Assembly: GCA_965206325.1 (NCBI GenBank)
Contig: OZ242208.1
Span: 294,326 to 358,325, forward strand
From: Gammaproteobacteria bacterium
Lineage (GTDB): Bacteria > Pseudomonadota > Gammaproteobacteria > Tethybacterales > G965206325
DNA length: 64,000 bases
Reading direction: 5' to 3'
Shown here piece by piece: positions 6,386-43,053 of the stretch. The notes under the pieces are model-generated. The model was not told the DNA's origin and searched no databases. It saw only the letters and a list, made by a program, of their open reading frames with translations. Both the position numbers and the translations under genes were made by a program. Position 1 is the first letter of the stretch, and each line of letters begins with the position of its first letter.

Positions 6386-7571
6386 TTACGCCTACCCCGA
6401 CGCCGCCGGGCGATTCGGCAAATTCGGCGGCGTTTATGTCGCCGAGACGCTGATGCACGCCGTCCATCAACTCGCCGACGCTTATGCGAAATTTCGCGAT
6501 GACGGCGATTTTCAGGCGGAAATAAATTCGCTTCTCGCCGAATATGTCGGACGCCCGAATCCGATTTATTTTGCGGCGCGATTTTCCGTCCGCTGCGGCG
6601 GAGCGAAAATCTTTTTGAAGCGGGAGGATTTGAATCACACCGGCGCGCACAAAATCAACAACGCCGTCGGACAAATTCTGCTGGCGCGCCGAATGGGCAA
6701 GCGGCGCATTATCGCCGAAACCGGCGCCGGACAGCACGGCGTCGCCGTCGCCACAGTTTGCGCCAGAGAAGGTTTGCCATGCGTGATTTACATGGGCGAA
6801 GACGACATCGTCCGCCAGCGGACAAATGTGCAGAGAATGGAATTGCTGGGGGCGAAAGTCGTCCCGGTTTCATCCGGCTCCAAAACGCTCAAAGACGCCT
6901 TAAACGAGGCGCTGCGGGATTGGGTCGCCAACATTGACGATACTTTTTATGTTATCGGGTCGGTGGCGGGGCCGCATCCGTATCCGATGATGGTGCGGGA
7001 TTTTAATGCCGTCATCGGCCGCGAATGCATTTTGCAAATGCCGAAAATCGCCGGACGCCAGCCGGATGCCGTTGTCGCCTGCGTCGGCGGCGGCTCCAAT
7101 GCGATGGGAATTTTTTATCCCTACATTCCGAATGCATCGGTGCGGCTTGTCGGCGTGGAAGCGGGCGGCGAAGGCATTGAAAGCGGCAGGCATTGCGCGA
7201 CTTTGTCCACCGGTCGTCCGGGAATTCTGCACGGAATGCTTTCGTATTTAATGCAGGACGACGACGGGCAAATTCTGCAGACGGCTTCCATTTCGGCGGG
7301 GCTGGATTATCCGGGAGTCGGACCGGAGCATTCGCATTTGAAGGAATCCGGCCGCGCCGAATACGCCGTCGCCAGCGATGCGGAGGCGCTTGACGCCTTT
7401 GACGATTTGGCGCGCTTGGAAGGAATTCTGCCCGCTTTGGAATCCGCCCACGCCCTCGCGCATGCCAAGAATCTCGCGCGCGAATTGGGGCCGGAAAAAA
7501 TCATTCTCGTCAATTTATCGGGGCGCGGCGACAAGGATTTGGATACGGTGCTGAAAATTAAAAATCGCTGA
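6369..7571 (+). CDS. trpB: tryptophan synthase beta chain
   Basis: [12 protein letters not shown]-lysine motif, GGGSNA, and 400 aa length. Confidence 0.95.
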
Positions 7572-20008: not shown

Positions 20009-20080
20009 AACAAAATGCGGCTTGTGCCGCGTGTCCAACTCACCGTGCATTTTTTTGAGTATTCGCACATTGTGGATTAC

Positions 20081-21595
20081 TTATTTGCGTTCCTTCTTGA
20101 TTTCCTGCTCGAGCAAGTGTAGCGAAGTTATTGTCGCTTTCTTGTCGGATTTCGGTAGTCTCTTGACAAGACTCTTCGCTCTTTCCAGCAGGGAATGCCA
20201 ATCATTGGTTCTGTGACGAAATTCCTCACGAGTCCAATTGATGTATGCACTTGCAAGATAAGTGTCACGATTGTCCTTGTCGCCCTTAAGTTGAGAGACG
20301 ACCTCCTTGTATGCATCTCTGCCCTCGGGTATTTTGCCTCTCCTGAAGTCAAGCAATCCTCGATTAGCGATAAGGCAAATCTTGGAAATCGGATCAAATT
20401 TGATAGTGCCGGATTTTGACAGCACTTCGCTGGCTTTTTCACACTTATCATCTCTTAAAAGAGAATACACGCGATTATTGAAGAGTGAATTATCTTGAGG
20501 GTATTTCTTCAACCCTTCCTCCGAGATTTTTCGGGCTTGTTTGAAATCCTCAAGCAGCTCGCAAGCGAGATACGACACTGCCTGATATGGTTTGAGAGCA
20601 AATGGTTGATCTTTTTTCCATGAAATGGCATTTTTCACCGCCGCGCGCCATTCTCCTTCATTAAAGAAATTGTTAAAGTTTGCCTCATGAGCATTCCTGT
20701 TCTCGCGCAAAATAGGGGATAGGTCATCAGCAAACCGCGCATTACTTTTTGCCCAAACAAGTTGGGCAATCGTGTTATCGTTTGGTGCTTTGGCTGATTT
20801 TCTGAAAAGCTGGTTCCCTTTTCTATGGCTACCACTTTTGCTTTCTAATGTTGCAATGCTCGCAGCCAACTCCGGTATGTGAGACAGGGGATAGCGATCA
20901 AGCATTTCAATCCCACGCTTGATAAATCGCGACGACTTTCCAAAGTGGTCAGAAGCGGCTATTTCTGTCGCTAAAAGCCATGGATTCCGGAGGATAATAT
21001 CCTTTTTTTTACGAAGGATATGGAGTCCGTATTTTTCTTGTTCAAGCGGTTTCTTCGGATCTGATATCCAAAACCTGACAGCGGCACGAATGATATGTCG
21101 GTCATAAGGTGCCAGTTGCAATGCCACTTTCATAGGGCGTTCTGCCTTTTTCCAAAGGCCATTTTGCGCATATAAAAGCGACAGATCCACCCAATAGTAA
21201 GGATTAAGTGGGAATCTGGCTAGGGATTTTCTGATTATCCCAATTTCTTTTGGAGGTAGAGATTCTTCCTCTATCCTATCGGAATCGCCCAATATTTTTT
21301 TGGAGGCACGGCGCACCAAGGGCGAAATGAAACGCCCCTCATTCAGGATAAAAGTGGCCGCATCTTTCGCCAACTCATGGTTCCCGTAAACGATGGCCGA
21401 CCCTATCAGATCCAGCGCAAAAGACAGTCCGCGATTCTCTCGCCATTCCTCGGCACGCTGTTCAAGGAATCTTTCATCAAAAACGATCGGGTTTTTGATT
21501 GCGTTGACCGGCTCCAGTTCCAGCGACTTAAGGGCGAATGTCACACTTCGCCAATAAGGGATTACTTTCCGATCCTGTGGTTCATTCGTAATCAT
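20081..21595 (-). CDS. alpha-helical (TPR-like) repeat protein of unknown function, downstream partner of the Ser/Thr kinase
   Basis: 504-aa ORF in a low-GC region, helical-repeat composition, 4-nt ATGA overlap with the upstream kinase gene; no recognisable catalytic motif. Confidence 0.5.
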   Translation of the reverse strand: MITNEPQDRKVIPYWRSVTFALKSLELEPVNAIKNPIVFDERFLEQRAEEWRENRGLSFALDLIGSAIVYGNHELAKDAATFILNEGRFISPLVRRASKKILGDSDRIEEESLPPKEIGIIRKSLARFPLNPYYWVDLSLLYAQNGLWKKAERPMKVALQLAPYDRHIIRAAVRFWISDPKKPLEQEKYGLHILRKKKDIILRNPWLLATEIAASDHFGKSSRFIKRGIEMLDRYPLSHIPELAASIATLESKSGSHRKGNQLFRKSAKAPNDNTIAQLVWAKSNARFADDLSPILRENRNAHEANFNNFFNEGEWRAAVKNAISWKKDQPFALKPYQAVSYLACELLEDFKQARKISEEGLKKYPQDNSLFNNRVYSLLRDDKCEKASEVLSKSGTIKFDPISKICLIANRGLLDFRRGKIPEGRDAYKEVVSQLKGDKDNRDTYLASAYINWTREEFRHRTNDWHSLLERAKSLVKRLPKSDKKATITSLHLLEQEIKKERK

Positions 21596-22653
21596 TCGAT
21601 CAATCTCCGCTCGAAAGATGTTGCAAGGCGATCAAAAATAGATTCGTAACGCCCGGCATCGAATTTCTTCAAATGCCTTTTATCACCCCGACGCTCCGGA
21701 TTGGGGTGACAGAGCTCTTTGACCAGCGAAATTAAATCACTAGCGGAGTTCCCCTGAACTGTTAATAAATCTTGTGGCGCCTTTTCCTCAAGGTTATCCA
21801 GAATGTCGCCGAACGCCATTTCCAGCCCTGGCAGAATTTCTTGAAAAGTCCCCTGCCATTGTTGGGGAGTTCGGTTGTATGGCAATTTTTGAAGCAATAA
21901 GGGCGTTGTCCCCTGTCCCATGAGCAAGAAAAGGGCCATGCTTCCGAGCAGATAGAAATCGATATCGAATTTTAGTGGAGCGTACCCGGATCGATATAGC
22001 ATCTCCGGCGGTTTATAAGCAGGATCGCCTGCTTCTTTCTCGGTTTTAACGAGAGGATGCTTTTTTCCGGTAATTTCGGCATGTCCCAAATCGCCGATTT
22101 TTATCGAGGTTACCGGATTTCCTCGATCCATAACAAGAATATTGGACGGCTTCATATCTCGATGAGAAATTAATTCTCGGTGCAGCTCTCTGATTCCGCC
22201 CGCAATTCGGTGGAGTGCTCTCATGCTGAGAGCGTTATCCCAAGTCGTATGCGGATCAACAGACCGGAGGTCGCCATCGGCCCTTTCGAACAAGATATAC
22301 GAGACATCGGGATATTGGAATCTCTCCTTTCTGAGAAGTCCATCCCCCATGATTTGGATGACTCTTTTCACTTGAGTGGATTGGCAGCTGCGCAGCAAGT
22401 CCACTTCGTAGTTAAACGCCGAAGTAACCTGTTCCATCTTGCGAGGAACGGAATCAAAATCATCAGGAATCCGGAAAATGGCGGCATAATCCAGCACTTT
22501 GACGAAGCATCGTGCATCGCCTTTCTCTGCGGCATAGCCAACAGAAAAAACGCCACCCGAACCGGTCGGCGGCATTTTTTGGGTTATTCGCCATCCATCC
22601 TTAAGGGTTTCCCCCAAAAGATGGTGGGCGGGGTGTTGAGTGATGCTTGTCAT
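21592..22653 (-). CDS. eukaryotic-like (Hanks-type) Ser/Thr protein kinase
   Basis: Gly-rich loop GSGGVFSV, VAIK-like FVKVL, HRDMKPSNIL catalytic loop, DLG (DFG-equivalent) and PPE motifs; low-GC region. Confidence 0.7.
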   Translation of the reverse strand: MTSITQHPAHHLLGETLKDGWRITQKMPPTGSGGVFSVGYAAEKGDARCFVKVLDYAAIFRIPDDFDSVPRKMEQVTSAFNYEVDLLRSCQSTQVKRVIQIMGDGLLRKERFQYPDVSYILFERADGDLRSVDPHTTWDNALSMRALHRIAGGIRELHRELISHRDMKPSNILVMDRGNPVTSIKIGDLGHAEITGKKHPLVKTEKEAGDPAYKPPEMLYRSGYAPLKFDIDFYLLGSMALFLLMGQGTTPLLLQKLPYNRTPQQWQGTFQEILPGLEMAFGDILDNLEEKAPQDLLTVQGNSASDLISLVKELCHPNPERRGDKRHLKKFDAGRYESIFDRLATSFERRLIE

Positions 22654-22930
22654 TTCAGAGAAATATAGCAGATAATTGTCAAGCAGTCAAATTTTCTGGA
22701 ATTTGGCGAATAAAACAGTCCGTTGCTGTTGTTTTTTTGTCACCTCGCCGGACGCGGATAATCGGGTTGCCTTTCCGCAAGCAGATCTTCCACGGTGAGG
22801 ATTTGAATCTTCGGCGGCGTGTCCGCCAAACCAGATTAAAACGCCCATCGCCGCCCTTTGGTTATTGACGGCGGTGACGAAATCGCGTAATTTGCCAACG
22901 CCCACTTACCGCAAATGGAAAGCGCAATAG

Positions 22931-23032
22931 GATTGTTCACACCCGGAATTGGGGATTACCCCAACGAGACCGAAAAATGAAAAAAGCACTCACCGGGATT
23001 GTTCACACCCGGAATTGGGGATTTACCCCAAC
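22931..23032. repeat. two 35/36-bp direct repeats (gattgttcacacccggaattggggatt(t)accccaac), each with a 6-bp hairpin ttgggg/ccccaa, separated by a 31-bp unique segment; begins 11 nt past the tnpB stop
   Basis: Exact repeat copies at 22931-22965 and 22997-23032, read directly from the sequence. CRISPR-like repeat-spacer-repeat or IS right-end / omega-RNA region. Confidence 0.5.
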
Positions 23033-23042
23033 CCGACCGCGT

Positions 23043-24398
23043 CTAAGTATTACTCAGGGCGGGTGATTCGCGCTTCACAGGCCGGGCAACCCCGCCACCA
23101 TCTCTGCGCGCAACCGCTTTGGATTTCTCCAATGCGGCATCGACCAATCCGGCCGTTAAAATGTTCACCGCCGCGTTAACATCCGCGTCGGCTTCATAAC
23201 CGCAGGCAACGCACTTAAATGCCTCGCGTTTGCGGTTTTCCGCCGCGACCATCCCGCATTTAGGACAAGTCCGGCTGGTGTTCTTGGGATCGACGAGTTT
23301 GACTTTCCCGCCGCGCTCTTCTACTTTGTAGATAATCATCGTCCGCAGCATTCCCAATCCGGCGGCAAGCAGCGCGCGATTCAGCGCGGCTTTGGTGCGG
23401 ACATTCCTGCCCGGATTATCGGCGTCGCCTTTCGCCGACGCCGTCATATTCAAAAGTTTCAAATCCTCCATCGCGATAAAGCCGTGCTTGACAGCGACGG
23501 CTTTGCTCAAATGATGCAAAGCATTATGGCGGCAGTCGCGAATCTTGTGCGACGCTTTCGCATGACGCTGCTGCGCGATTTCATAGCGGCGGCTGTATCG
23601 CGGCTTGCGCTTTTTCCACGACTTGCCTTCGTTTTGCTGTGCGCGCAATTCTTTGAGTCGCTTTTCGGCTTGGCCTCGCGTTTCGCTTTTGCCGTCCCAG
23701 CCGACTTCGCGGCGCAATGCGGCTTCGCGCTTGCGCGCCATCGCCCTTTCATACCGACGCTTGCGGGCGGCGTGGCGCTTTTGATTCCGCTCGGCGTAAT
23801 GCTGCGAAATGCGATACAAAGTGCCGTCGCTCGCCGCCGCCGTTTTCTTAATGCCGACATCCAAACCGACCGGCTCGCCGTTATGCATCGGCGCATCCTT
23901 TTCAAAAGTAAAAGGAATGCAGACAAACCAGCGGTCGCCATCGCGAGTGACATTCACCGTCCCCTGCTTGCCATCGGGCAAAGGAAGATGCATTCGCATT
24001 CGGACGAGTCCGATATTCGGCAGGCGAATGCGATTGTTATAAATCGGGCATTTGCCCGCATCAACGCGGAAGTAATCCGGCGTAATGCCTTTTGCGGAAA
24101 AGCGGGGGAATCCTTTCTGTCCTTTGAAAGCGGCGACAAAATCGCCGTTCAATGCGCGGGCGGCTTGCCCTTGCGCGTCCGCGGATACCGCGCAAAACCA
24201 ATTGATATTGCCGCGCAATTCCGTCCGCATTTGATAGCCGCGTTTGCGGTCGTATTTTTCGCCCGCCTCAAACCGCGTTTTATTGTCGGCGATTAATTGA
24301 TTGCGAAACCATCGGCAAGCCCCCGCCGTGCGGGCCAGCCGACGCCGCTCGCCAACTCGCGGCATCAGCGGAAATTTATAAGTGCGGGTGATTTCCAT
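23043..24398 (-). CDS. tnpB: TnpB (IS605 OrfB family RuvC-like RNA-guided nuclease)
   Basis: RuvC-I GLDVGIK, RuvC-II IAMEDLK, zinc finger CPKCG...CVACG, RuvC-III DADVNAAVNI; 451 aa with a basic insertion. Confidence 0.85.
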   Translation of the reverse strand: MEITRTYKFPLMPRVGERRRLARTAGACRWFRNQLIADNKTRFEAGEKYDRKRGYQMRTELRGNINWFCAVSADAQGQAARALNGDFVAAFKGQKGFPRFSAKGITPDYFRVDAGKCPIYNNRIRLPNIGLVRMRMHLPLPDGKQGTVNVTRDGDRWFVCIPFTFEKDAPMHNGEPVGLDVGIKKTAAASDGTLYRISQHYAERNQKRHAARKRRYERAMARKREAALRREVGWDGKSETRGQAEKRLKELRAQQNEGKSWKKRKPRYSRRYEIAQQRHAKASHKIRDCRHNALHHLSKAVAVKHGFIAMEDLKLLNMTASAKGDADNPGRNVRTKAALNRALLAAGLGMLRTMIIYKVEERGGKVKLVDPKNTSRTCPKCGMVAAENRKREAFKCVACGYEADADVNAAVNILTAGLVDAALEKSKAVARRDGGGVARPVKRESPALSNT

Positions 24399-24407
24399 TT
24401 CGCGGAT

Positions 24408-24436
24408 ATTATAACCTCCTGTTTTTAATTTGTCAA
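24408..24436 (-). promoter_or_regulatory. consensus sigma70 promoter of tnpB (TTGACA - 17 nt - TATAAT), leaderless-like 14-nt spacing to the ATG
   Basis: Reverse complement of 24408-24436 reads ttgacaaattaaaaacaggaggttataat. Confidence 0.5.
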
Positions 24437-24442
24437 GGGAGG

Positions 24443-25231
24443 TTATTCTTCGCGGTGTTCAATTTTATTCTCGGCGAGATAATTTTCGCATTCGCCCAAG
24501 GCGGCGGCGACGCGGGAAGAATCCGGCGAAGTGAAAACCAAAGAACAAAAAAAGCGTCCGCCCTCCGCTCTAATATCTCCCCCACCGCCAATACCCCCCC
24601 CCCCCTCGCTGCCCGGATAACTGCCAATCTCCACATCATCATAGCGGCTCTGCAAATCAAAAAGAAATTCGGCGACGACGCTTTCCCCCGCATAAACGCG
24701 CACCGACCGCGAAAGAGAAGGCATCCCCCCCCCCAAAGACGGCGCGACAGTTTCCGCCATCGCGCGAAAAATTGCCGGCACGCCCGCCATTACAAAAACA
24801 TTTCCAATGCGATACCCCGGCGCGCCGGATATGCGATTGTCAATTAGCGTCGCCCCCTTCGGCAGCCTTGCCATTCTGATTCGCGACGGCGTTAATTCTT
24901 CGCCGCGCGGCGCGTAGAATCGGCGCAAACACTCGGCTGCACGAGGATCGACGGACGCCGTCACGCCGAATGCGGCGGCGACGGAATCGGTTGTAATGTC
25001 GTCGTGAGTCGGGCCGATGCCGCCGCTGGTAAAGACAAAATCCGCGCGCGCGCGCAATTGGTTTATGGCATCAACTATCGCCGATTGTTCGTCGCGGACG
25101 ACCCGCACTTCGGTTAATCGCACCCCCCCCCCTGTTAGAATTTGCGCCAGACAATGCAGATTGCATTCGGCGGTTCGCCCCGACAAAATTTCATTGCCGA
25201 TAATTAACAGCGCGGCGGTCGGATTTTTCAT
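24443..25231 (-). CDS. CinA-like molybdopterin-binding (MoCF biosynthesis domain) protein
   Basis: LLIIGNEILSGRT...FTSGGIGPTHDD motifs of the CinA N-terminal domain. Confidence 0.75.
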   Translation of the reverse strand: MKNPTAALLIIGNEILSGRTAECNLHCLAQILTGGGVRLTEVRVVRDEQSAIVDAINQLRARADFVFTSGGIGPTHDDITTDSVAAAFGVTASVDPRAAECLRRFYAPRGEELTPSRIRMARLPKGATLIDNRISGAPGYRIGNVFVMAGVPAIFRAMAETVAPSLGGGMPSLSRSVRVYAGESVVAEFLFDLQSRYDDVEIGSYPGSEGGGGIGGGGDIRAEGGRFFCSLVFTSPDSSRVAAALGECENYLAENKIEHREE

Positions 25232-25263: not shown

Positions 25264-26154
25264 CTATTCCTCCGCCTGAAGAATTTTGAAGACGGCGGAG
25301 GAATCCAGATCCCCCCCCCCTCCTTCTATTAATTTGTCAAGGCGATGCAGAAAGATTTCCGCGCCCGGCAGGGGGGCGGAAAATTGTTCGGCGTTTTCCA
25401 ATGCGATTTTCATATCCTTGCGATGCAAAGCGGCTTTGAATCCGGGGGCGTAATCGCCGGAAAGCATTCGCGCCGCATGAATTTCCATCACCTTGCTGGC
25501 GGCGAATCCGCCCATTAATGCTTGGCGGACGCGCGCCGCATCAACGCCGTTTTTCTGCGCGAGGCGAAACGCTTCGGCGATTCCTTCTATGGTCGCGCCG
25601 ATGACAATTTGATTGCACGCTTTCGCCGTTTGTCCGGCGCCGCTTTCGCCGACAAGCGTGACGGTCTTTCCCATTGCATTAAACAAAGGAAGCGCGCGCG
25701 CAAATGCTTCTGCATTGCCGCCGACCATAAAAGAAAGCGCGCCTTCTATCGCGCCTTTTTCGCCGCCGGAAACAGGAGCGTCAAGGAGTTCAATTTTTTT
25801 TTCGGCGAGAGTCGCAGCCATTTGGCGGGTCGCCGCCGGGGAAATTGTGCTCATATCGGCGACGATCGCTCCTTCTTTTGCGCCGTGAATGACGCCGTTG
25901 CCGCCGAGCAGAATCTCCTTCACATCAGGCGTGTCCGAAACATTAGTGAAGATGAATTCGCATTGGCGGGCGAGGTCGGCCGGAGTCGCCGACGCCTGCG
26001 CGCCCTGCGAAATTAAAGATGCGGCCTGCTCCGGTCGGCGCGCAAAAACAATCAGCGGATAGCCCGCGCGCAGAAGATTCGCCGCCGCCGGCTTTCCCAT
26101 AATGCCGAGCCCGATATAGCCGACAGTCGGCTTTTTATTTTCCGTCATCATCAT
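25264..26154 (-). CDS. NAD(P)-dependent 3-hydroxyisobutyrate / 2-hydroxy-3-oxopropionate reductase family dehydrogenase
   Basis: GYIGLGIMG Rossmann motif and the 6-phosphogluconate-DH-like NAD-binding fold pattern. Confidence 0.8.
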   Translation of the reverse strand: MMMTENKKPTVGYIGLGIMGKPAAANLLRAGYPLIVFARRPEQAASLISQGAQASATPADLARQCEFIFTNVSDTPDVKEILLGGNGVIHGAKEGAIVADMSTISPAATRQMAATLAEKKIELLDAPVSGGEKGAIEGALSFMVGGNAEAFARALPLFNAMGKTVTLVGESGAGQTAKACNQIVIGATIEGIAEAFRLAQKNGVDAARVRQALMGGFAASKVMEIHAARMLSGDYAPGFKAALHRKDMKIALENAEQFSAPLPGAEIFLHRLDKLIEGGGGDLDSSAVFKILQAEE

Positions 26155-27308
26155 TCCTTTGAATTGCGAATGCGCGATTGTAGCGCATTTTTTGCGGCGG
26201 GATATCGGGAGAATTTGTGGCTGTCGCCAATCACTAAATCCCGATATTTGCGATGAATGAAAAGGACTTCGCGGCCGGCTTTAATTTCTTCCAAGACGCC
26301 GATGGCGCGCAATTCGCGCAGATATTTTGCCGCAGTAATGCGCGAGCATTTCAAAGTTTGCATTAAATTTCGAATGCGGCAGTAGGGCTGCATAAAAATG
26401 CAGTTGGCGATGGATTCCGAAGTCGACGGCGGCCAAGAATGCCGGCGAATATGCTCGGCGGTGTGCGACATTAAATTGCAGACCGCGTCAATGCGGGCAA
26501 TCATCCATCTTGATGTTTTTTCAATTGCGTCCAGCATGTAGAGAATCCAAGGTTCCCATTCGGCGCGGCGGGTGACGCCGTCCAAGAGTTTGTAATACTT
26601 TTCGCGGTAATTCAAAATGTGCCGGCTGAGATACAAAATCGGAATGTCAAGCAGTCCGCGCTCCATCAAATGCAGAATGTTGAGGATGCGCCCCGTGCGG
26701 CCGTTGCCGTCGGCGAAGGGATGAATGGCTTCAAATTGATAATGCGCGACCGCCATTCGCACAAGCGGATCAAGGGCGGGCTTGTCGGCGTGAATGAATC
26801 GCTCCCAGTTATCCAGAAGGTCAAGGAGCAATTTTTCGCCCTGCGGCGGCGTGTAGATGGGGCGTCCGTTTTTTCCCTGCAGGAATGTCCCCGGAATTCG
26901 GCGGACGGACATTGGCGCGCCTTTGATGATTTGGCATATTTCAATCGCCGTTTTTTTGCTTTGCGGATGGCCGCCGCGAATCAAATCGTGTCCGCGCCGC
27001 AGGGCGGTGCGATAGCGCAGCGCTTCTTTGGTGGCGGGATCGGTTTTGGAATCGTCCTCGCCGGAGTGGCGAAAAAGCGAATCGGCGGTGGTGACGATGT
27101 TTTCAATTTCAGAACTGGCCTGCGCTTCCAGCAGCGGAATTGTGTTAATCAGAACCGTCTGGTCGGGCAGGCGTCGTCCGGCCTGTTTTAATTCGCCCAA
27201 GGCGGCGCGGGCGGCGATGCATTTTTTCAGCACGGCGACGGTTTCCAGCGGCTTGCGCGGCGGCAGGAGCGGGAGATCGTCGTAGGGCTTGCGGGGATTC
27301 ATTCGCAT
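26151..27308 (-). CDS. fic: Fic family adenylyltransferase with N-terminal inhibitory helix and C-terminal winged HTH
   Basis: Fic motif HPFADGNGRTGR, inhibitory motif SSEIEN, C-terminal HTH-like region. Confidence 0.85.
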   Translation of the reverse strand: MRMNPRKPYDDLPLLPPRKPLETVAVLKKCIAARAALGELKQAGRRLPDQTVLINTIPLLEAQASSEIENIVTTADSLFRHSGEDDSKTDPATKEALRYRTALRRGHDLIRGGHPQSKKTAIEICQIIKGAPMSVRRIPGTFLQGKNGRPIYTPPQGEKLLLDLLDNWERFIHADKPALDPLVRMAVAHYQFEAIHPFADGNGRTGRILNILHLMERGLLDIPILYLSRHILNYREKYYKLLDGVTRRAEWEPWILYMLDAIEKTSRWMIARIDAVCNLMSHTAEHIRRHSWPPSTSESIANCIFMQPYCRIRNLMQTLKCSRITAAKYLRELRAIGVLEEIKAGREVLFIHRKYRDLVIGDSHKFSRYPAAKNALQSRIRNSKE

Positions 27309-41002: not shown

Positions 41003-41983
41003 TTAGGCGGAAAAATCCATGAAGTAATTTTCCTCGTCTACCTTAATGAAAGTGACTTTCGTTCTGTTATATGCTATCAAGTGATCTTTGAGGATGAGTT
41101 CACCGAGTGGCACTTCCAGTCGTCGGCGAAAATATTCGCCGATTAAACTATTATTTTCGGTGGAGTGAATTGCTTTTCCGGTATCTTGGCGACGGGCGCA
41201 AATCATTACTTGGCCATCGTCGGTATGAAGGGTGAAGTGAACGCCCCGAGCGGGGAAAAAGGAATTTACTTTTGCTCCCATTTCTCCACCCGTTGGAAGA
41301 CGAATATATGCTTGATTGGGTTCTCTATGCGCTTCAGGACGCTGACCCCAATTCAACCCAGAGCGAGAAGGAAGCCGTCCCGACCGATCCAGCAAGGAAA
41401 TTGTCAAAGAATCTCCATTGTTGGAAATTTTCCTTACGCCATAGGGTTTCCTGCCGAGATGTGACTTAATTCTCTCCCTCTCCCTATCTGGCACAACCAA
41501 ACCGTTCACATCAGGGTGATTGCAGAAGATCGCGCGAGCTTCGACATCGCGATAAAACTTCATCAATTCAACAGGATCATGGACAGTTGCTACCTCAACT
41601 TGCCTTTTGCCATAAGCGGTCTGCGTATAATTTGCCGAACCGACAAATCCGGCTATTGGGTTTTGCTGACGAAACCAAGCGTATGTTTTTGCGTGGACAG
41701 GAGCCCCCTCAGTGACATAACTGCACTGAAAACGACGGCAGAATTTTTTCGCCTTGCATAAGTGTGCCAGCCCCTTATGATTGGCTTCGGCTATCCCATC
41801 GGACGCAACCATCCCGACAATCAGGTTGATTTTAATGGATTGCGTTACCTTGCTGTCGAGCTCCCGCAAATGCCAGTCCGCCATTCCAGCGGACGCGTAG
41901 CCGGAAACGATGTAGAGCGTATCCGCACCTTCAAGGGCGGGAGATTCCAATATTTTCCGATACAATGGATTCGTCAAAAGCAT
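41003..41983 (-). CDS. PLD-family (HKD motif) Type II restriction endonuclease, NgoAVII/BfiI-like with C-terminal B3-like DNA-binding region
   Basis: HxK(x4)D...GSxN motif present as HAKTYAW...FVGSANYT; 10-nt overlap with the MTase gene; low GC. Confidence 0.65.
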   Translation of the reverse strand: MLLTNPLYRKILESPALEGADTLYIVSGYASAGMADWHLRELDSKVTQSIKINLIVGMVASDGIAEANHKGLAHLCKAKKFCRRFQCSYVTEGAPVHAKTYAWFRQQNPIAGFVGSANYTQTAYGKRQVEVATVHDPVELMKFYRDVEARAIFCNHPDVNGLVVPDRERERIKSHLGRKPYGVRKISNNGDSLTISLLDRSGRLPSRSGLNWGQRPEAHREPNQAYIRLPTGGEMGAKVNSFFPARGVHFTLHTDDGQVMICARRQDTGKAIHSTENNSLIGEYFRRRLEVPLGELILKDHLIAYNRTKVTFIKVDEENYFMDFSA

Positions 41984-43053
41984 GGATGGTGGACTCCATT
42001 TATTCCCAAATCCATGTTAGATTGCACGACAGGATAGTGCTTGCCCGCAAAGGTTTTGAGCACCGCCCGAAAAACCACCTTTGCTGCTTGCGGCGGAACA
42101 GCCATGCCGATTTGCTTGCGAACACTTTCCTTTTGTCCGACAAAAATGAATTTGTCGGGAAAGCTTTGCAACCGCGCCCTTTCGCGATTCGTCAGCGCAC
42201 GATCCTTTTTCCAGTGATAAACATGAGTGCCGCCGCCGCCGCTACCGGTGATGGTATATGAGGGGTGGTCGGGGCGCAGACGACGATAAATTAAACTGAG
42301 CTTTGCGCCGTTTACATTAAGGCGCAGATCATCCGGCATTGACGCATTAAAAGCATTCTCGCCGGGTTTGATATAACGCAACCGTTCAATAACGGTTTGG
42401 GATTGGCGCGTAAATTCGTGATTTGGCGAATCAGCACGGATATTTTTGAGCGCGGTCTGCGCAGTCACATCAATCTTTTGATATGGAGACGGCGAGGGAA
42501 TGCCAAAGGCAACATTTTGGTCACGCCGAATCCCGACCACGATGATTCGTTGCCGCTTTTGCGGCACGCCATATTTGTCAAATTTGTAAAGGTGTGGATA
42601 AATTTTATAGCCGTCTCCCGCTGCGGCAAATTCGCGGAGGATTTTGCGGAGTGTGTTCCCGTCATCGGAGTTTTTAAGTCCGCCGACATTCTCGGCGACG
42701 AACCACTTGGGATTGAAATGGTGAACGCCCGCAACGCAGTAAGTATAAAGCGAACCGTAAGAGCCGGAGATTCCGGCTTTTTTGCCGACAACGCTGAAAT
42801 CGTTGCACGGAAATCCGAATGCCAGTGCGTCAATTTCTCCCGCTTTTTCCAAAGTGGAAAAGTCAAGTTTCCGCACATCGCGGGGAAAGATTTTCTCAGG
42901 CATGAGATTCTGCTCGTAGGTGTGGCAGGAATCGCGGTCAAAGTCAGTCGCCCAAACATGGGCGATCGACAAATCGCCTGTTGCGGCGAGGCGGGCACCA
43001 AGCCCGAGTCCTCCCGCTCCGCAAAATAATTCTCCTAGTCGGAATCGGCTCAT
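41974..43053 (-). CDS. dcm: DNA (cytosine-5)-methyltransferase
   Basis: Motif I FCGAGG, motif IV PCNDFS (catalytic Cys), ENV, and QKRQR motifs. Confidence 0.9.
   Translation of the reverse strand: MSRFRLGELFCGAGGLGLGARLAATGDLSIAHVWATDFDRDSCHTYEQNLMPEKIFPRDVRKLDFSTLEKAGEIDALAFGFPCNDFSVVGKKAGISGSYGSLYTYCVAGVHHFNPKWFVAENVGGLKNSDDGNTLRKILREFAAAGDGYKIYPHLYKFDKYGVPQKRQRIIVVGIRRDQNVAFGIPSPSPYQKIDVTAQTALKNIRADSPNHEFTRQSQTVIERLRYIKPGENAFNASMPDDLRLNVNGAKLSLIYRRLRPDHPSYTITGSGGGGTHVYHWKKDRALTNRERARLQSFPDKFIFVGQKESVRKQIGMAVPPQAAKVVFRAVLKTFAGKHYPVVQSNMDLGINGVHHPCF

Follow-up and report, generated by a model that had tools for sequence, protein, structure and literature searches.

Does the TnpB-family gene that lies in a 64,000-nt stretch of a gammaproteobacterial chromosome (Tethybacterales; GenBank assembly GCA_965206325.1, contig OZ242208.1, positions 294,326 to 358,325, forward strand; hereafter the window) belong to an insertion sequence (IS), or has it become the effector of a small CRISPR system? 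The gene, which encodes a 451-aa protein here called the effector, is followed by two direct repeats that enclose a unique segment. A first-pass annotation, made from the sequence alone, described the locus as an IS605-family element with a minimal repeat-spacer-repeat unit of type V geometry, and left open whether it was an intermediate between a TnpB/omega-RNA pair and Cas12 or an IS whose right end had been tandemly duplicated. The evidence assembled below gives us good confidence that the locus descends from an IS200/IS605 TnpB that was domesticated and became fixed in the chromosome, and that its protein now acts as effector in a minimal CRISPR system, type V-like and of the TranC / type V-U kind. 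The intermediate character proposed at first is borne out by comparison with 12 related loci, in which the repeats are conserved and the spacers are different.

Repeats and spacers in the window and in related loci

The repeats lie 3' of the effector gene, the first starting 10 nt past the stop codon rather than the 11 nt first given, and recur at a spacing of 66 nt (coordinates of all features are collected in Table 1). A 28-mer shared by the two repeats occurs exactly twice in the 64-kb window, as compared with none in 100 shuffles. The unit itself was thus correctly recognised, although its dimensions needed revision: on the gene's strand the repeats measure 37 and 36 nt and the spacer 30 nt, instead of 35/36 and 31 bp, and the hairpin within each repeat folds with a 7-bp rather than a 6-bp stem. 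A terminal guide is probably provided by the 30 nt that follow repeat 2. Farther downstream, a possible fossil repeat is the best repeat-like 36-mer beyond repeat 2 and is offset by 3 x 67 nt from where repeat 1 starts; its empirical p value, uncorrected, is 0.016. This fossil repeat has a 12-mer, GGCGGACACGCC, in common with the repeat of a distant relative (locus L010, 6410-6644); we discounted the match, since gidA coding DNA contains that 12-mer too and the agreement may be due to chance. No second array was found in the 64-kb window.

Relatives were collected by protein search (eight at 66-91% identity and L010 at 41%) and from the effector's 90%-identity cluster (three more), giving 12 loci, all from ENA metagenome assemblies; only the window's protein is also in NCBI. 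Every one of the 12 carries an array, composed of two to five repeats of about 36 nt and of spacers of 27-34 nt, mostly exactly 30 nt. Among the closer relatives the array starts 10 nt past the stop codon and ends in a decayed repeat in 11 of 11; in L010 a different, 37-nt repeat recurs with a 66-nt period, and its first copy overlaps the stop codon. As a control, ordinary TnpB relatives (29-35% identity, viral contigs) were screened for a direct repeat of at least 22 nt at 45-100-nt spacing downstream of tnpB; two of 77 had one, neither of them array-like. Because 13 of 13 loci of the effector clade have an array, against two of 77 controls with any comparable repeat, the array is a derived trait of this clade.

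Seven of the loci are syntenic with the window, in the order ProRS, Fic, NAD-binding dehydrogenase, CinA, effector, array, variable genes, SLT_2 and MatE. Their ProRS, NAD-binding (HIBDH-like) dehydrogenase and CinA are 95-99% identical to those of the window, mostly 98-99%, and so is Fic except in a single strain (L046, 79% identical vs 98-99% in the others); from these mostly 98-99% identities we take the window and the seven syntenic loci to be strains of one species. The spacers do not follow the flanks. Gene-proximal spacers are all different among the syntenic strains, and each related locus holds one to four spacers that differ between strains with the same flanks. An identical intervening sequence at every copy of the element, which the first-pass annotation had named as the mark of a structural right end, is the opposite of what was found: the sequence differs in all 12 loci between conserved repeats, and the proposed type V-like repeat-spacer-repeat unit on a TnpB thus holds up.

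The far ends of the arrays are older. One distal spacer, CTTTCCGAATTCGGAAAGsGGTCGTTCGCG, and the terminal repeat next to it are common to L003, L046 and L047; in these loci the terminal repeat is of an ancestral sequence type (GTTTCGGTCAACCGAG...) and the proximal repeats have a newer hairpin. Another old distal spacer is common to L005 and L007, though these two occupy different chromosomal sites. Repeat variants also follow position in the array: in L046 the first two repeats match exactly and the third does not, the pattern that would result if each new spacer came with a copy of the proximal repeat. With unique spacers near the gene and common ones far from it, the arrays show CRISPR polarity and have the effector gene on their leader side, and the repeat sequence co-varies with the effector lineage. 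With relatives that reach four to five repeats, and with arrays that turn over, the word "nascent" used at first is too strong.

A few further observations concern the array sequences themselves. Perfect palindromes occur in far-end old spacers or trailers (TTTCCGAATTCGGAAA, TTTCCGTTAACGGAAA and TTTTTCACCGGTGAAAAA, in L003 6457-6486, L004 6463-6558 and L008 6550-6570), and these may be terminator-like elements or remnants of ancestral flanks; spacers 2 and 3 of L004 resemble duplicates of one another. An exact search of GTDB genomes with a 19-mer of the repeat returned two chance matches inside coding regions, and the pattern GTGAACAATCC-N48-62-GTGAACAATCC, sought in JGI metagenomes and IMG/VR, returned 34 loci that are all unrelated tandem repeats. 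The JGI metagenome contigs L013, L014, L015, L019, L023, L024 and L038 hold tandem units, 64-84 nt long, with ...GTGAACAATCC at their end and a hairpin after it, as in ACCAGCTTCCGCTGGTGG; they are without unique spacers and have the 11-nt 3' motif in common with the window's repeat family, being otherwise unrelated.

The effector and its predicted guide-RNA scaffold

By sequence and by fold the effector is a TnpB. Its Pfam matches are HTH_OrfB_IS605, OrfB_IS605 and Cas12f1-like_TNB. Among NCBIfam models the RNA-guided endonuclease TnpB family (guided_TnpB) scores best, with 235 bits vs a cut-off of 100, and no Cas12-specific model reaches its cut-off. The RuvC triad D180/E311/D406 and the zinc-finger cysteines C378/C381/C396/C399, whose completeness had been claimed from the single sequence, are invariant in an alignment of 60 homologues. 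Every comparison gives a ratio of nonsynonymous to synonymous substitution rates (dN/dS) of 0.25-0.5, which shows that purifying selection maintains the gene. An AlphaFold2 model (mean predicted local distance difference test score, pLDDT, 88.5) has a low-confidence C-terminal tail, and in a fold search its closest match by template-modelling score (TM) is ISFba1 TnpB (8iaz, TM 0.69/0.80), along with ISDra2 TnpB (8h1j and 8exa, TM 0.64/0.78-0.83); AsCas12f and LaTranC rank after these, and RdCas12n only 50th, from which we conclude that the effector has the size and fold of a TnpB. Its nearest annotated relatives on plasmids and phages are ordinary IS200/IS605 TnpBs, at most 35% identical and adjoining tnpA. 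Two short fragments in the effector's 90%-identity cluster (P0121 and P0122, of 126 and 142 aa, on one 18,311-bp contig) suggest that one strain or more carries a disrupted copy.

The promoter of the gene had been placed within a left-end hairpin. The promoter stands, both hexamers being kept in all syntenic loci; at another chromosomal site (L007/L008) it reads TTGACA...TATCAT, and L009 retains the -10 hexamer only. The hairpin is not conserved.

The 3' end of the coding sequence appears to double as RNA. When the last ~170 nt of the open reading frame (ORF) and repeat 1 were aligned across eight loci and folded with RNAalifold, the fold comprised a closing stem of GGAUU in the ORF tail (23150-23146) with AAUCC, the final five nucleotides of the repeat; a hairpin within the coding tail; a second hairpin with the stop codon in its loop; and the repeat hairpin, lengthened by the four nucleotides that precede repeat 1. 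In the window's own scaffold the predicted pairing is between GGAUU(G), 23150-23145, and the repeat's 3'-terminal (C)AAUCC. Compensatory double changes are found in six pairs: the tail hairpin alternates between CGGG/CCCG and CGAC/GUCG, the stop-codon hairpin exists in three versions, and in the repeat hairpin G-C is swapped for C-G in four of eight sequences. Pairing in the tail hairpin is kept while the residues encoded change from G-V-A to D-N-S, a sign of selection on the RNA. The same architecture emerged from 11 orthologue scaffolds folded independently, with an extra hairpin in the window's lineage where about nine residues are inserted in the tail of the protein. The window's 155-nt scaffold has a minimum free energy of -70.4 kcal/mol (z = -3.8; none of 200 shuffles as stable). 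These results rest on the alignment fold and the per-sequence folds, an RNAduplex scan for anti-repeats being too noisy to use. Rfam returned nothing relevant, either at permissive E-values on 22000-25000 or at gathering thresholds on the whole window.

As to transcription, no terminator-like site lies between gene and array on the gene's strand, which, together with the omega-RNA homology, speaks for transcription of the array in the same direction as the gene. The plus-strand promoter proposed to point into the repeats fared less well: the motif, TTGACG-17-TAATTT at 22865-22893, is present, but it matches eight of 12 consensus positions, was unreported by the promoter scan, and is too weak, and unneeded, to be accepted in that role.

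Taken together, these features suggest how the system would work. A single transcript would run from the consensus promoter through the gene into the array, and the ORF 3' end with repeat 1 would fold as an omega-RNA-like scaffold that has spacer 1 as its guide. Later repeats, which keep the 5' hairpin and a conserved 3' tail (GGTGAACAATCC), would bind in trans to the scaffold encoded by the ORF, pairing by CAAUCC:GGAUUG and at one further short stretch, such that after processing the ORF tail would act as tracrRNA (trans-activating CRISPR RNA) and each repeat-spacer unit as CRISPR RNA (crRNA). The RuvC nuclease would cut DNA matching guides of ~20-30 nt beside a 5' protospacer-adjacent or transposon-associated motif (PAM/TAM), and, judging from the context of the locus, would thereby protect the cell from mobile elements. 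New 30-nt spacers would be inserted at the gene-proximal end, and their likeliest source would be an adaptation module elsewhere in the genome.

Several points weigh against a working CRISPR system. The window's array is minimal: two repeats are clear, and the sequence expected to hold a third, at 22899, is indistinguishable from shuffled sequence (p = 0.12-0.27). Nineteen spacers, spacer 1 among them, compared by BLAST with phage and plasmid records gave no match at E <= 1; six spacer 22-mers, including the first 22 nt of spacer 1 and of the terminal guide, have no exact match in IMG/VR; and neither the window nor the fetched loci contain a spacer target at up to six mismatches. The databases probably lack phages of this host, as it is an uncultured gammaproteobacterium with no close named relative (the nearest named ProRS is 70% identical). 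Neither cas1 nor cas2 was detected in the window, among 58 ORFs (25 best families listed) or among 20 suitably sized ORFs scanned singly. Finally, the proposed repeat:anti-repeat contacts are short and invariant: the closing stem GGAUU:AAUCC has no covariation support, and its conservation may reflect protein constraint, its 5' arm encoding a nearly invariant Gly-Leu.

Table 1. Positions in the window of the effector locus and of the genes beside it.
Feature	Position	Strand	Basis or remark
Effector gene, 451-aa TnpB-family RuvC nuclease	23043-24398	minus	ORF and Pfam/NCBIfam matches; D180/E311/D406; CxxC...CxxC zinc finger
Effector promoter TTGACA-17-TATAAT	24408-24436	minus	12/12 consensus positions
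Predicted omega-RNA/tracr-like scaffold	22996-23150	minus	Last ~106 nt of ORF, 10-nt linker and repeat 1
Repeat 1 (37 nt) GTTGGGGTAAATCCCCAATTCCGGGTGTGAACAATCC	22996-23032	minus	Direct repeat, 7-bp 5' hairpin
Spacer 1 (30 nt) CGGTGAGTGCTTTTTTCATTTTTCGGTCTC	22966-22995	minus	Sequence unique to the window's strain
Repeat 2 (36 nt) GTTGGGGTAATCCCCAATTCCGGGTGTGAACAATCC	22930-22965	minus	Same as repeat 1 bar one loop nucleotide
Terminal guide, putative spacer 2 TATTGCGCTTTCCATTTGCGGTAAGTGGGC	22900-22929	minus	Guide position after repeat 2
Possible fossil repeat GTTTGGCGGACACGCCGCCGAAGATTCAAATCC	22799-22831	minus	In phase with the array; weak evidence
Strain-specific cargo, PADLOC candidate defence system PDC-M71	20081-22690	minus	Low G+C; profile matches
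Cargo promoter TTGACT-17-TATATT	22690-22662	minus	Promoter motif
Cargo protein kinase, 353 aa	21592-22653	minus	Pkinase domain; PDC-M71A E = 6e-84, full length
Cargo TPR protein, 504 aa	20081-21595	minus	TPR domain; PDC-M71B E = 5.5e-106, full length
Fic-domain protein upstream of the locus	26151-27308	minus	PADLOC SoFic E = 8e-111

Chromosomal setting and rival readings

With a SoFic match upstream and PDC-M71 downstream, the effector sits between two defence-type loci. The downstream cargo has a G+C content of 0.44-0.50, vs mostly 0.51-0.60 in the flanks, and its position is occupied in other strains by unrelated genes: a PIN-containing gene pair, Sel1/DUF2971 proteins, a TIR protein (PDC-S35), an AbiC-like protein beside an operon of the cyclic-oligonucleotide-based antiphage signalling system (CBASS), and an ankyrin protein. 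Compared with the syntenic strains, the window loses homology at 22995 and regains it at 20021, immediately beyond SLT_2. The window also contains a type II restriction enzyme-like ORF (41003-41983), which overlaps a neighbouring 359-aa ORF (41003-43053 together, minus strand), an ORF that matches cytosine methyltransferase models, and one that matches PADLOC typeIV_DinG at 1.6e-137 and is probably a housekeeping DinG helicase.

The constancy of this arrangement raises the question of whether the array guides the TnpB-like protein in some non-immune task, with targets on the host chromosome or in the cargo, such as control of the cargo, maintenance or homing of the island, or RNA-guided exchange of cassettes. 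A same-strand gene directly follows the array in 13 of 13 loci (at three sites of one species, and in L010), in most of them a defence-type or repeat-protein gene. The cargo's left junction falls inside the decayed terminal repeat (L003 6487-6518; L004 6559-6591; L045 ~6501-6520; L046 6565-6596; L047 6553-6584), coming after ...GGGTGAAAT both in L003, which carries the PIN gene pair, and in L004, L046 and L047, which carry the Sel1 gene, and after GTTTCGGTCAACCGGGAAC in L045; at the Sel1 and ankyrin loci a TTGACT -35-like hexamer directly follows the junction. The breaks in homology between strains fall exactly at the 3' end of repeat 1, the lack of known phage or plasmid targets would fit such a role as well, and there is a precedent for domestication of TnpB relatives into regulators in the TldRs (bioRxiv 10.1101/2023.11.30.569447). 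Those regulators are nuclease-dead, however, and the triad here is intact and conserved; no spacer matches cargo, cargo promoter or other fetched DNA at up to six mismatches; the rapid proximal gain of unique spacers fits immunity better than regulation of a fixed target; and defence genes cluster in islands anyway. We therefore regard a non-immune role as unlikely, if deserving of the fullest hearing among the alternatives. It is likewise quite unlikely, in our estimate, that effector-array and following gene form one functional unit (the array end being an entry point for defence cassettes, or the effector controlling or triggering the downstream gene), and/or that the 30-nt spacers are acquired without a dedicated Cas1-Cas2. 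For the coupling of array module and following gene in particular we see a slim chance that it is real, and the constant following gene could be mere defence-island clustering. If true, an array-cargo unit or Cas1-Cas2-free spacer acquisition would be a new property for a TnpB-derived system.

Returning to the type V-like CRISPR reading, a second alternative would make the locus a TnpB-only IS200/IS605 (IS1341-like) element whose right end, the 3' segment of the omega-RNA, has been tandemly duplicated, the unique segment being filler. Sequence and fold do mark the protein as a TnpB on every measure, the annotated relatives nearest to it are the IS200/IS605 TnpBs beside tnpA, and repeat 1 is continuous with an omega-RNA-like scaffold. 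The locus nevertheless does not behave as an IS605-family element. Among the 120 best homologues listed, only this effector comes from the window's 1,985,600-bp contig, and each relative is recorded on a single contig, several of which are ~2-Mb genomes; in eight strains the single copy per genome occupies the same syntenic site. No TnpA was found in the 64-kb window by a rough tblastn probe with an approximate query and a scan for the Y1 motif, and no ends can be defined. The left-end hairpin was considered as an IS end and rejected, its inverted repeat being degraded in L005 and L006 and absent in L007-L009, where the promoter is kept; on the right, in place of a single end with a flank-derived guide, there is an array. 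The intervening segments differ in every strain with their 30-nt length kept, and the arrays grow to four or five repeats with a decayed distal one. The spacer diversity contradicts the tandem duplication that had been offered as an alternative explanation, which we now consider very improbable, and the effector gene is not an active IS.

Over longer periods, the module does change place. It is found at three chromosomal sites, between cinA and SLT_2 (the window), next to gidA (L007/L008) and between ilvA and ilvD (L009), with a different defence-type gene after it at each and with each listed allele on a single contig. The 90%-identity clusters of the ParB and IlvA proteins that flank these other sites include genomes of cinA-site strains, the ParB cluster also that of the window. 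The stretch homologous between the window and L008 begins precisely at the -35 hexamer (24436) and stops where repeat 1 ends (22996). At the cinA site the effector alleles are 71-98% identical, vs mostly 98-99% for the flanks, a divergence that is typical of allele turnover in defence islands.

That the repeats are an orphan array of another CRISPR-Cas system, lying beside a TnpB gene by chance, might be suggested by their common CRISPR geometry (36-nt repeat, 30-nt spacers) and the absence of adaptation genes nearby, but is scarcely credible given that the array adjoins the 3' end of the gene in 13 loci and four genomic contexts (12 at 10 nt, L010 overlapping with a different repeat), that its sequence tracks the effector lineage, that the repeat belongs to a conserved structure reaching into the ORF, and that the window holds no other array.

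Comparison with known systems

The main value of the locus lies in a population-level view of spacer and allele turnover, together with a compact effector. About a dozen conspecific genomes have flanks that are mostly 98-99% identical and differ in spacers, effector alleles and neighbouring defence genes, which makes spacer gain without local cas1/cas2, and the turnover rate of proto-CRISPR modules, testable. Judged from its sequence, the combination of a 451-aa nuclease, a ~155-nt scaffold and multiplexed guides is also a candidate compact genome editor.

Among characterised nucleases, the ISDra2 and ISFba1 TnpBs resemble the effector in size, domain order and fold (TM 0.78-0.83), and in having the scaffold in the ORF 3' end with the guide on its 3' side. 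They differ in that the window locus lacks a detected TnpA, multiple copies and recognisable ends, lies in a defence island, and carries several strain-variable guides, vs one guide fixed by flanking DNA. The nuclease-dead TnpB-like repressors (TldRs) were set aside because the RuvC triad of the effector is intact and invariant. A Cas12f (type V-F) family cut-off is not reached: NCBIfam Cas12f2 scores 79 bits vs a cut-off of 450 and the TM to AsCas12f is 0.52-0.58; PADLOC Cas12f profiles match at 1.4e-60, being profiles that have no curated cut-off.

Cas12n (type V-N, formerly V-U4) calls for closer comparison. RdCas12n (9j09) is the best PDB sequence match of the effector (E = 4e-26), and PADLOC Cas12u4 matches at E = 8e-60. 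In Cas12n the tracrRNA region overlaps the ORF, which there encodes a disordered C-terminal loop (PMC12216341), and the effector's low-confidence C-terminal tail similarly also encodes structured RNA. The 9j09 match is, however, confined to the RuvC half (residues 269-416), and the effector is without the enlarged REC/WED domains described for Cas12n. Membership was rejected on fold, RdCas12n standing far behind the TnpBs with TM 0.27/0.44 over 258 columns.

The nearest parallels are found in the V-U* branches and in TranC. Altae-Tran et al. (PNAS 2023, PMC10691335) found some 40 independent V-U* branches in which a TnpB-derived effector is accompanied by an array downstream and by no adaptation genes, and these arrays have been proposed to arise by duplication of an omega-RNA segment (PMC10691335). 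The candidate subtypes V-U6 to V-U45 share with the window locus a TnpB-derived effector, a short downstream array, the lack of cas1/2/4, and immobility as compared with IS-borne TnpB. TranC systems, as they are presented in the papers citing their description, are transposon-CRISPR intermediates (Jin et al., Cell 2025, cited in PMC13565253, PMC13639567 and bioRxiv 10.64898/2026.03.27.714800); their clades have 32-38-bp repeats, a median of ~5 repeats and no cas accessory genes of their own nearby, and one clade has an effector of TnpB size (10.64898/2026.03.27.714800). Points of likeness are the compact TnpB-like effector, the downstream few-repeat array and the lack of associated adaptation genes, some clades having TnpB size and fold. 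The guide RNA of TranC is understood as the omega-RNA, or right-end element RNA (reRNA), split into tracr-like scaffold and crRNA, a division that the window locus may share. LaTranC (PDB 9jfo/9jfq), the one TranC compared, is a significant structural match to the effector and is detected by phmmer at E = 8e-11 with ~21-23% identity. The window and its 11 closer relatives differ from TranC in keeping repeat 1 fused to the scaffold, 10 nt past the stop codon.

On testable features, the locus fits the TranC / type V-U class already described in the literature, an assignment made to the class and not to a named clade. Type V CRISPR's origin from TnpB has been documented only recently, through V-U* and TranC, and alongside these systems the locus provides a clean natural example of an early stage, as its protein is still TnpB-sized and TnpB-folded and its first repeat remains joined to the omega-RNA-like scaffold of the ORF tail.

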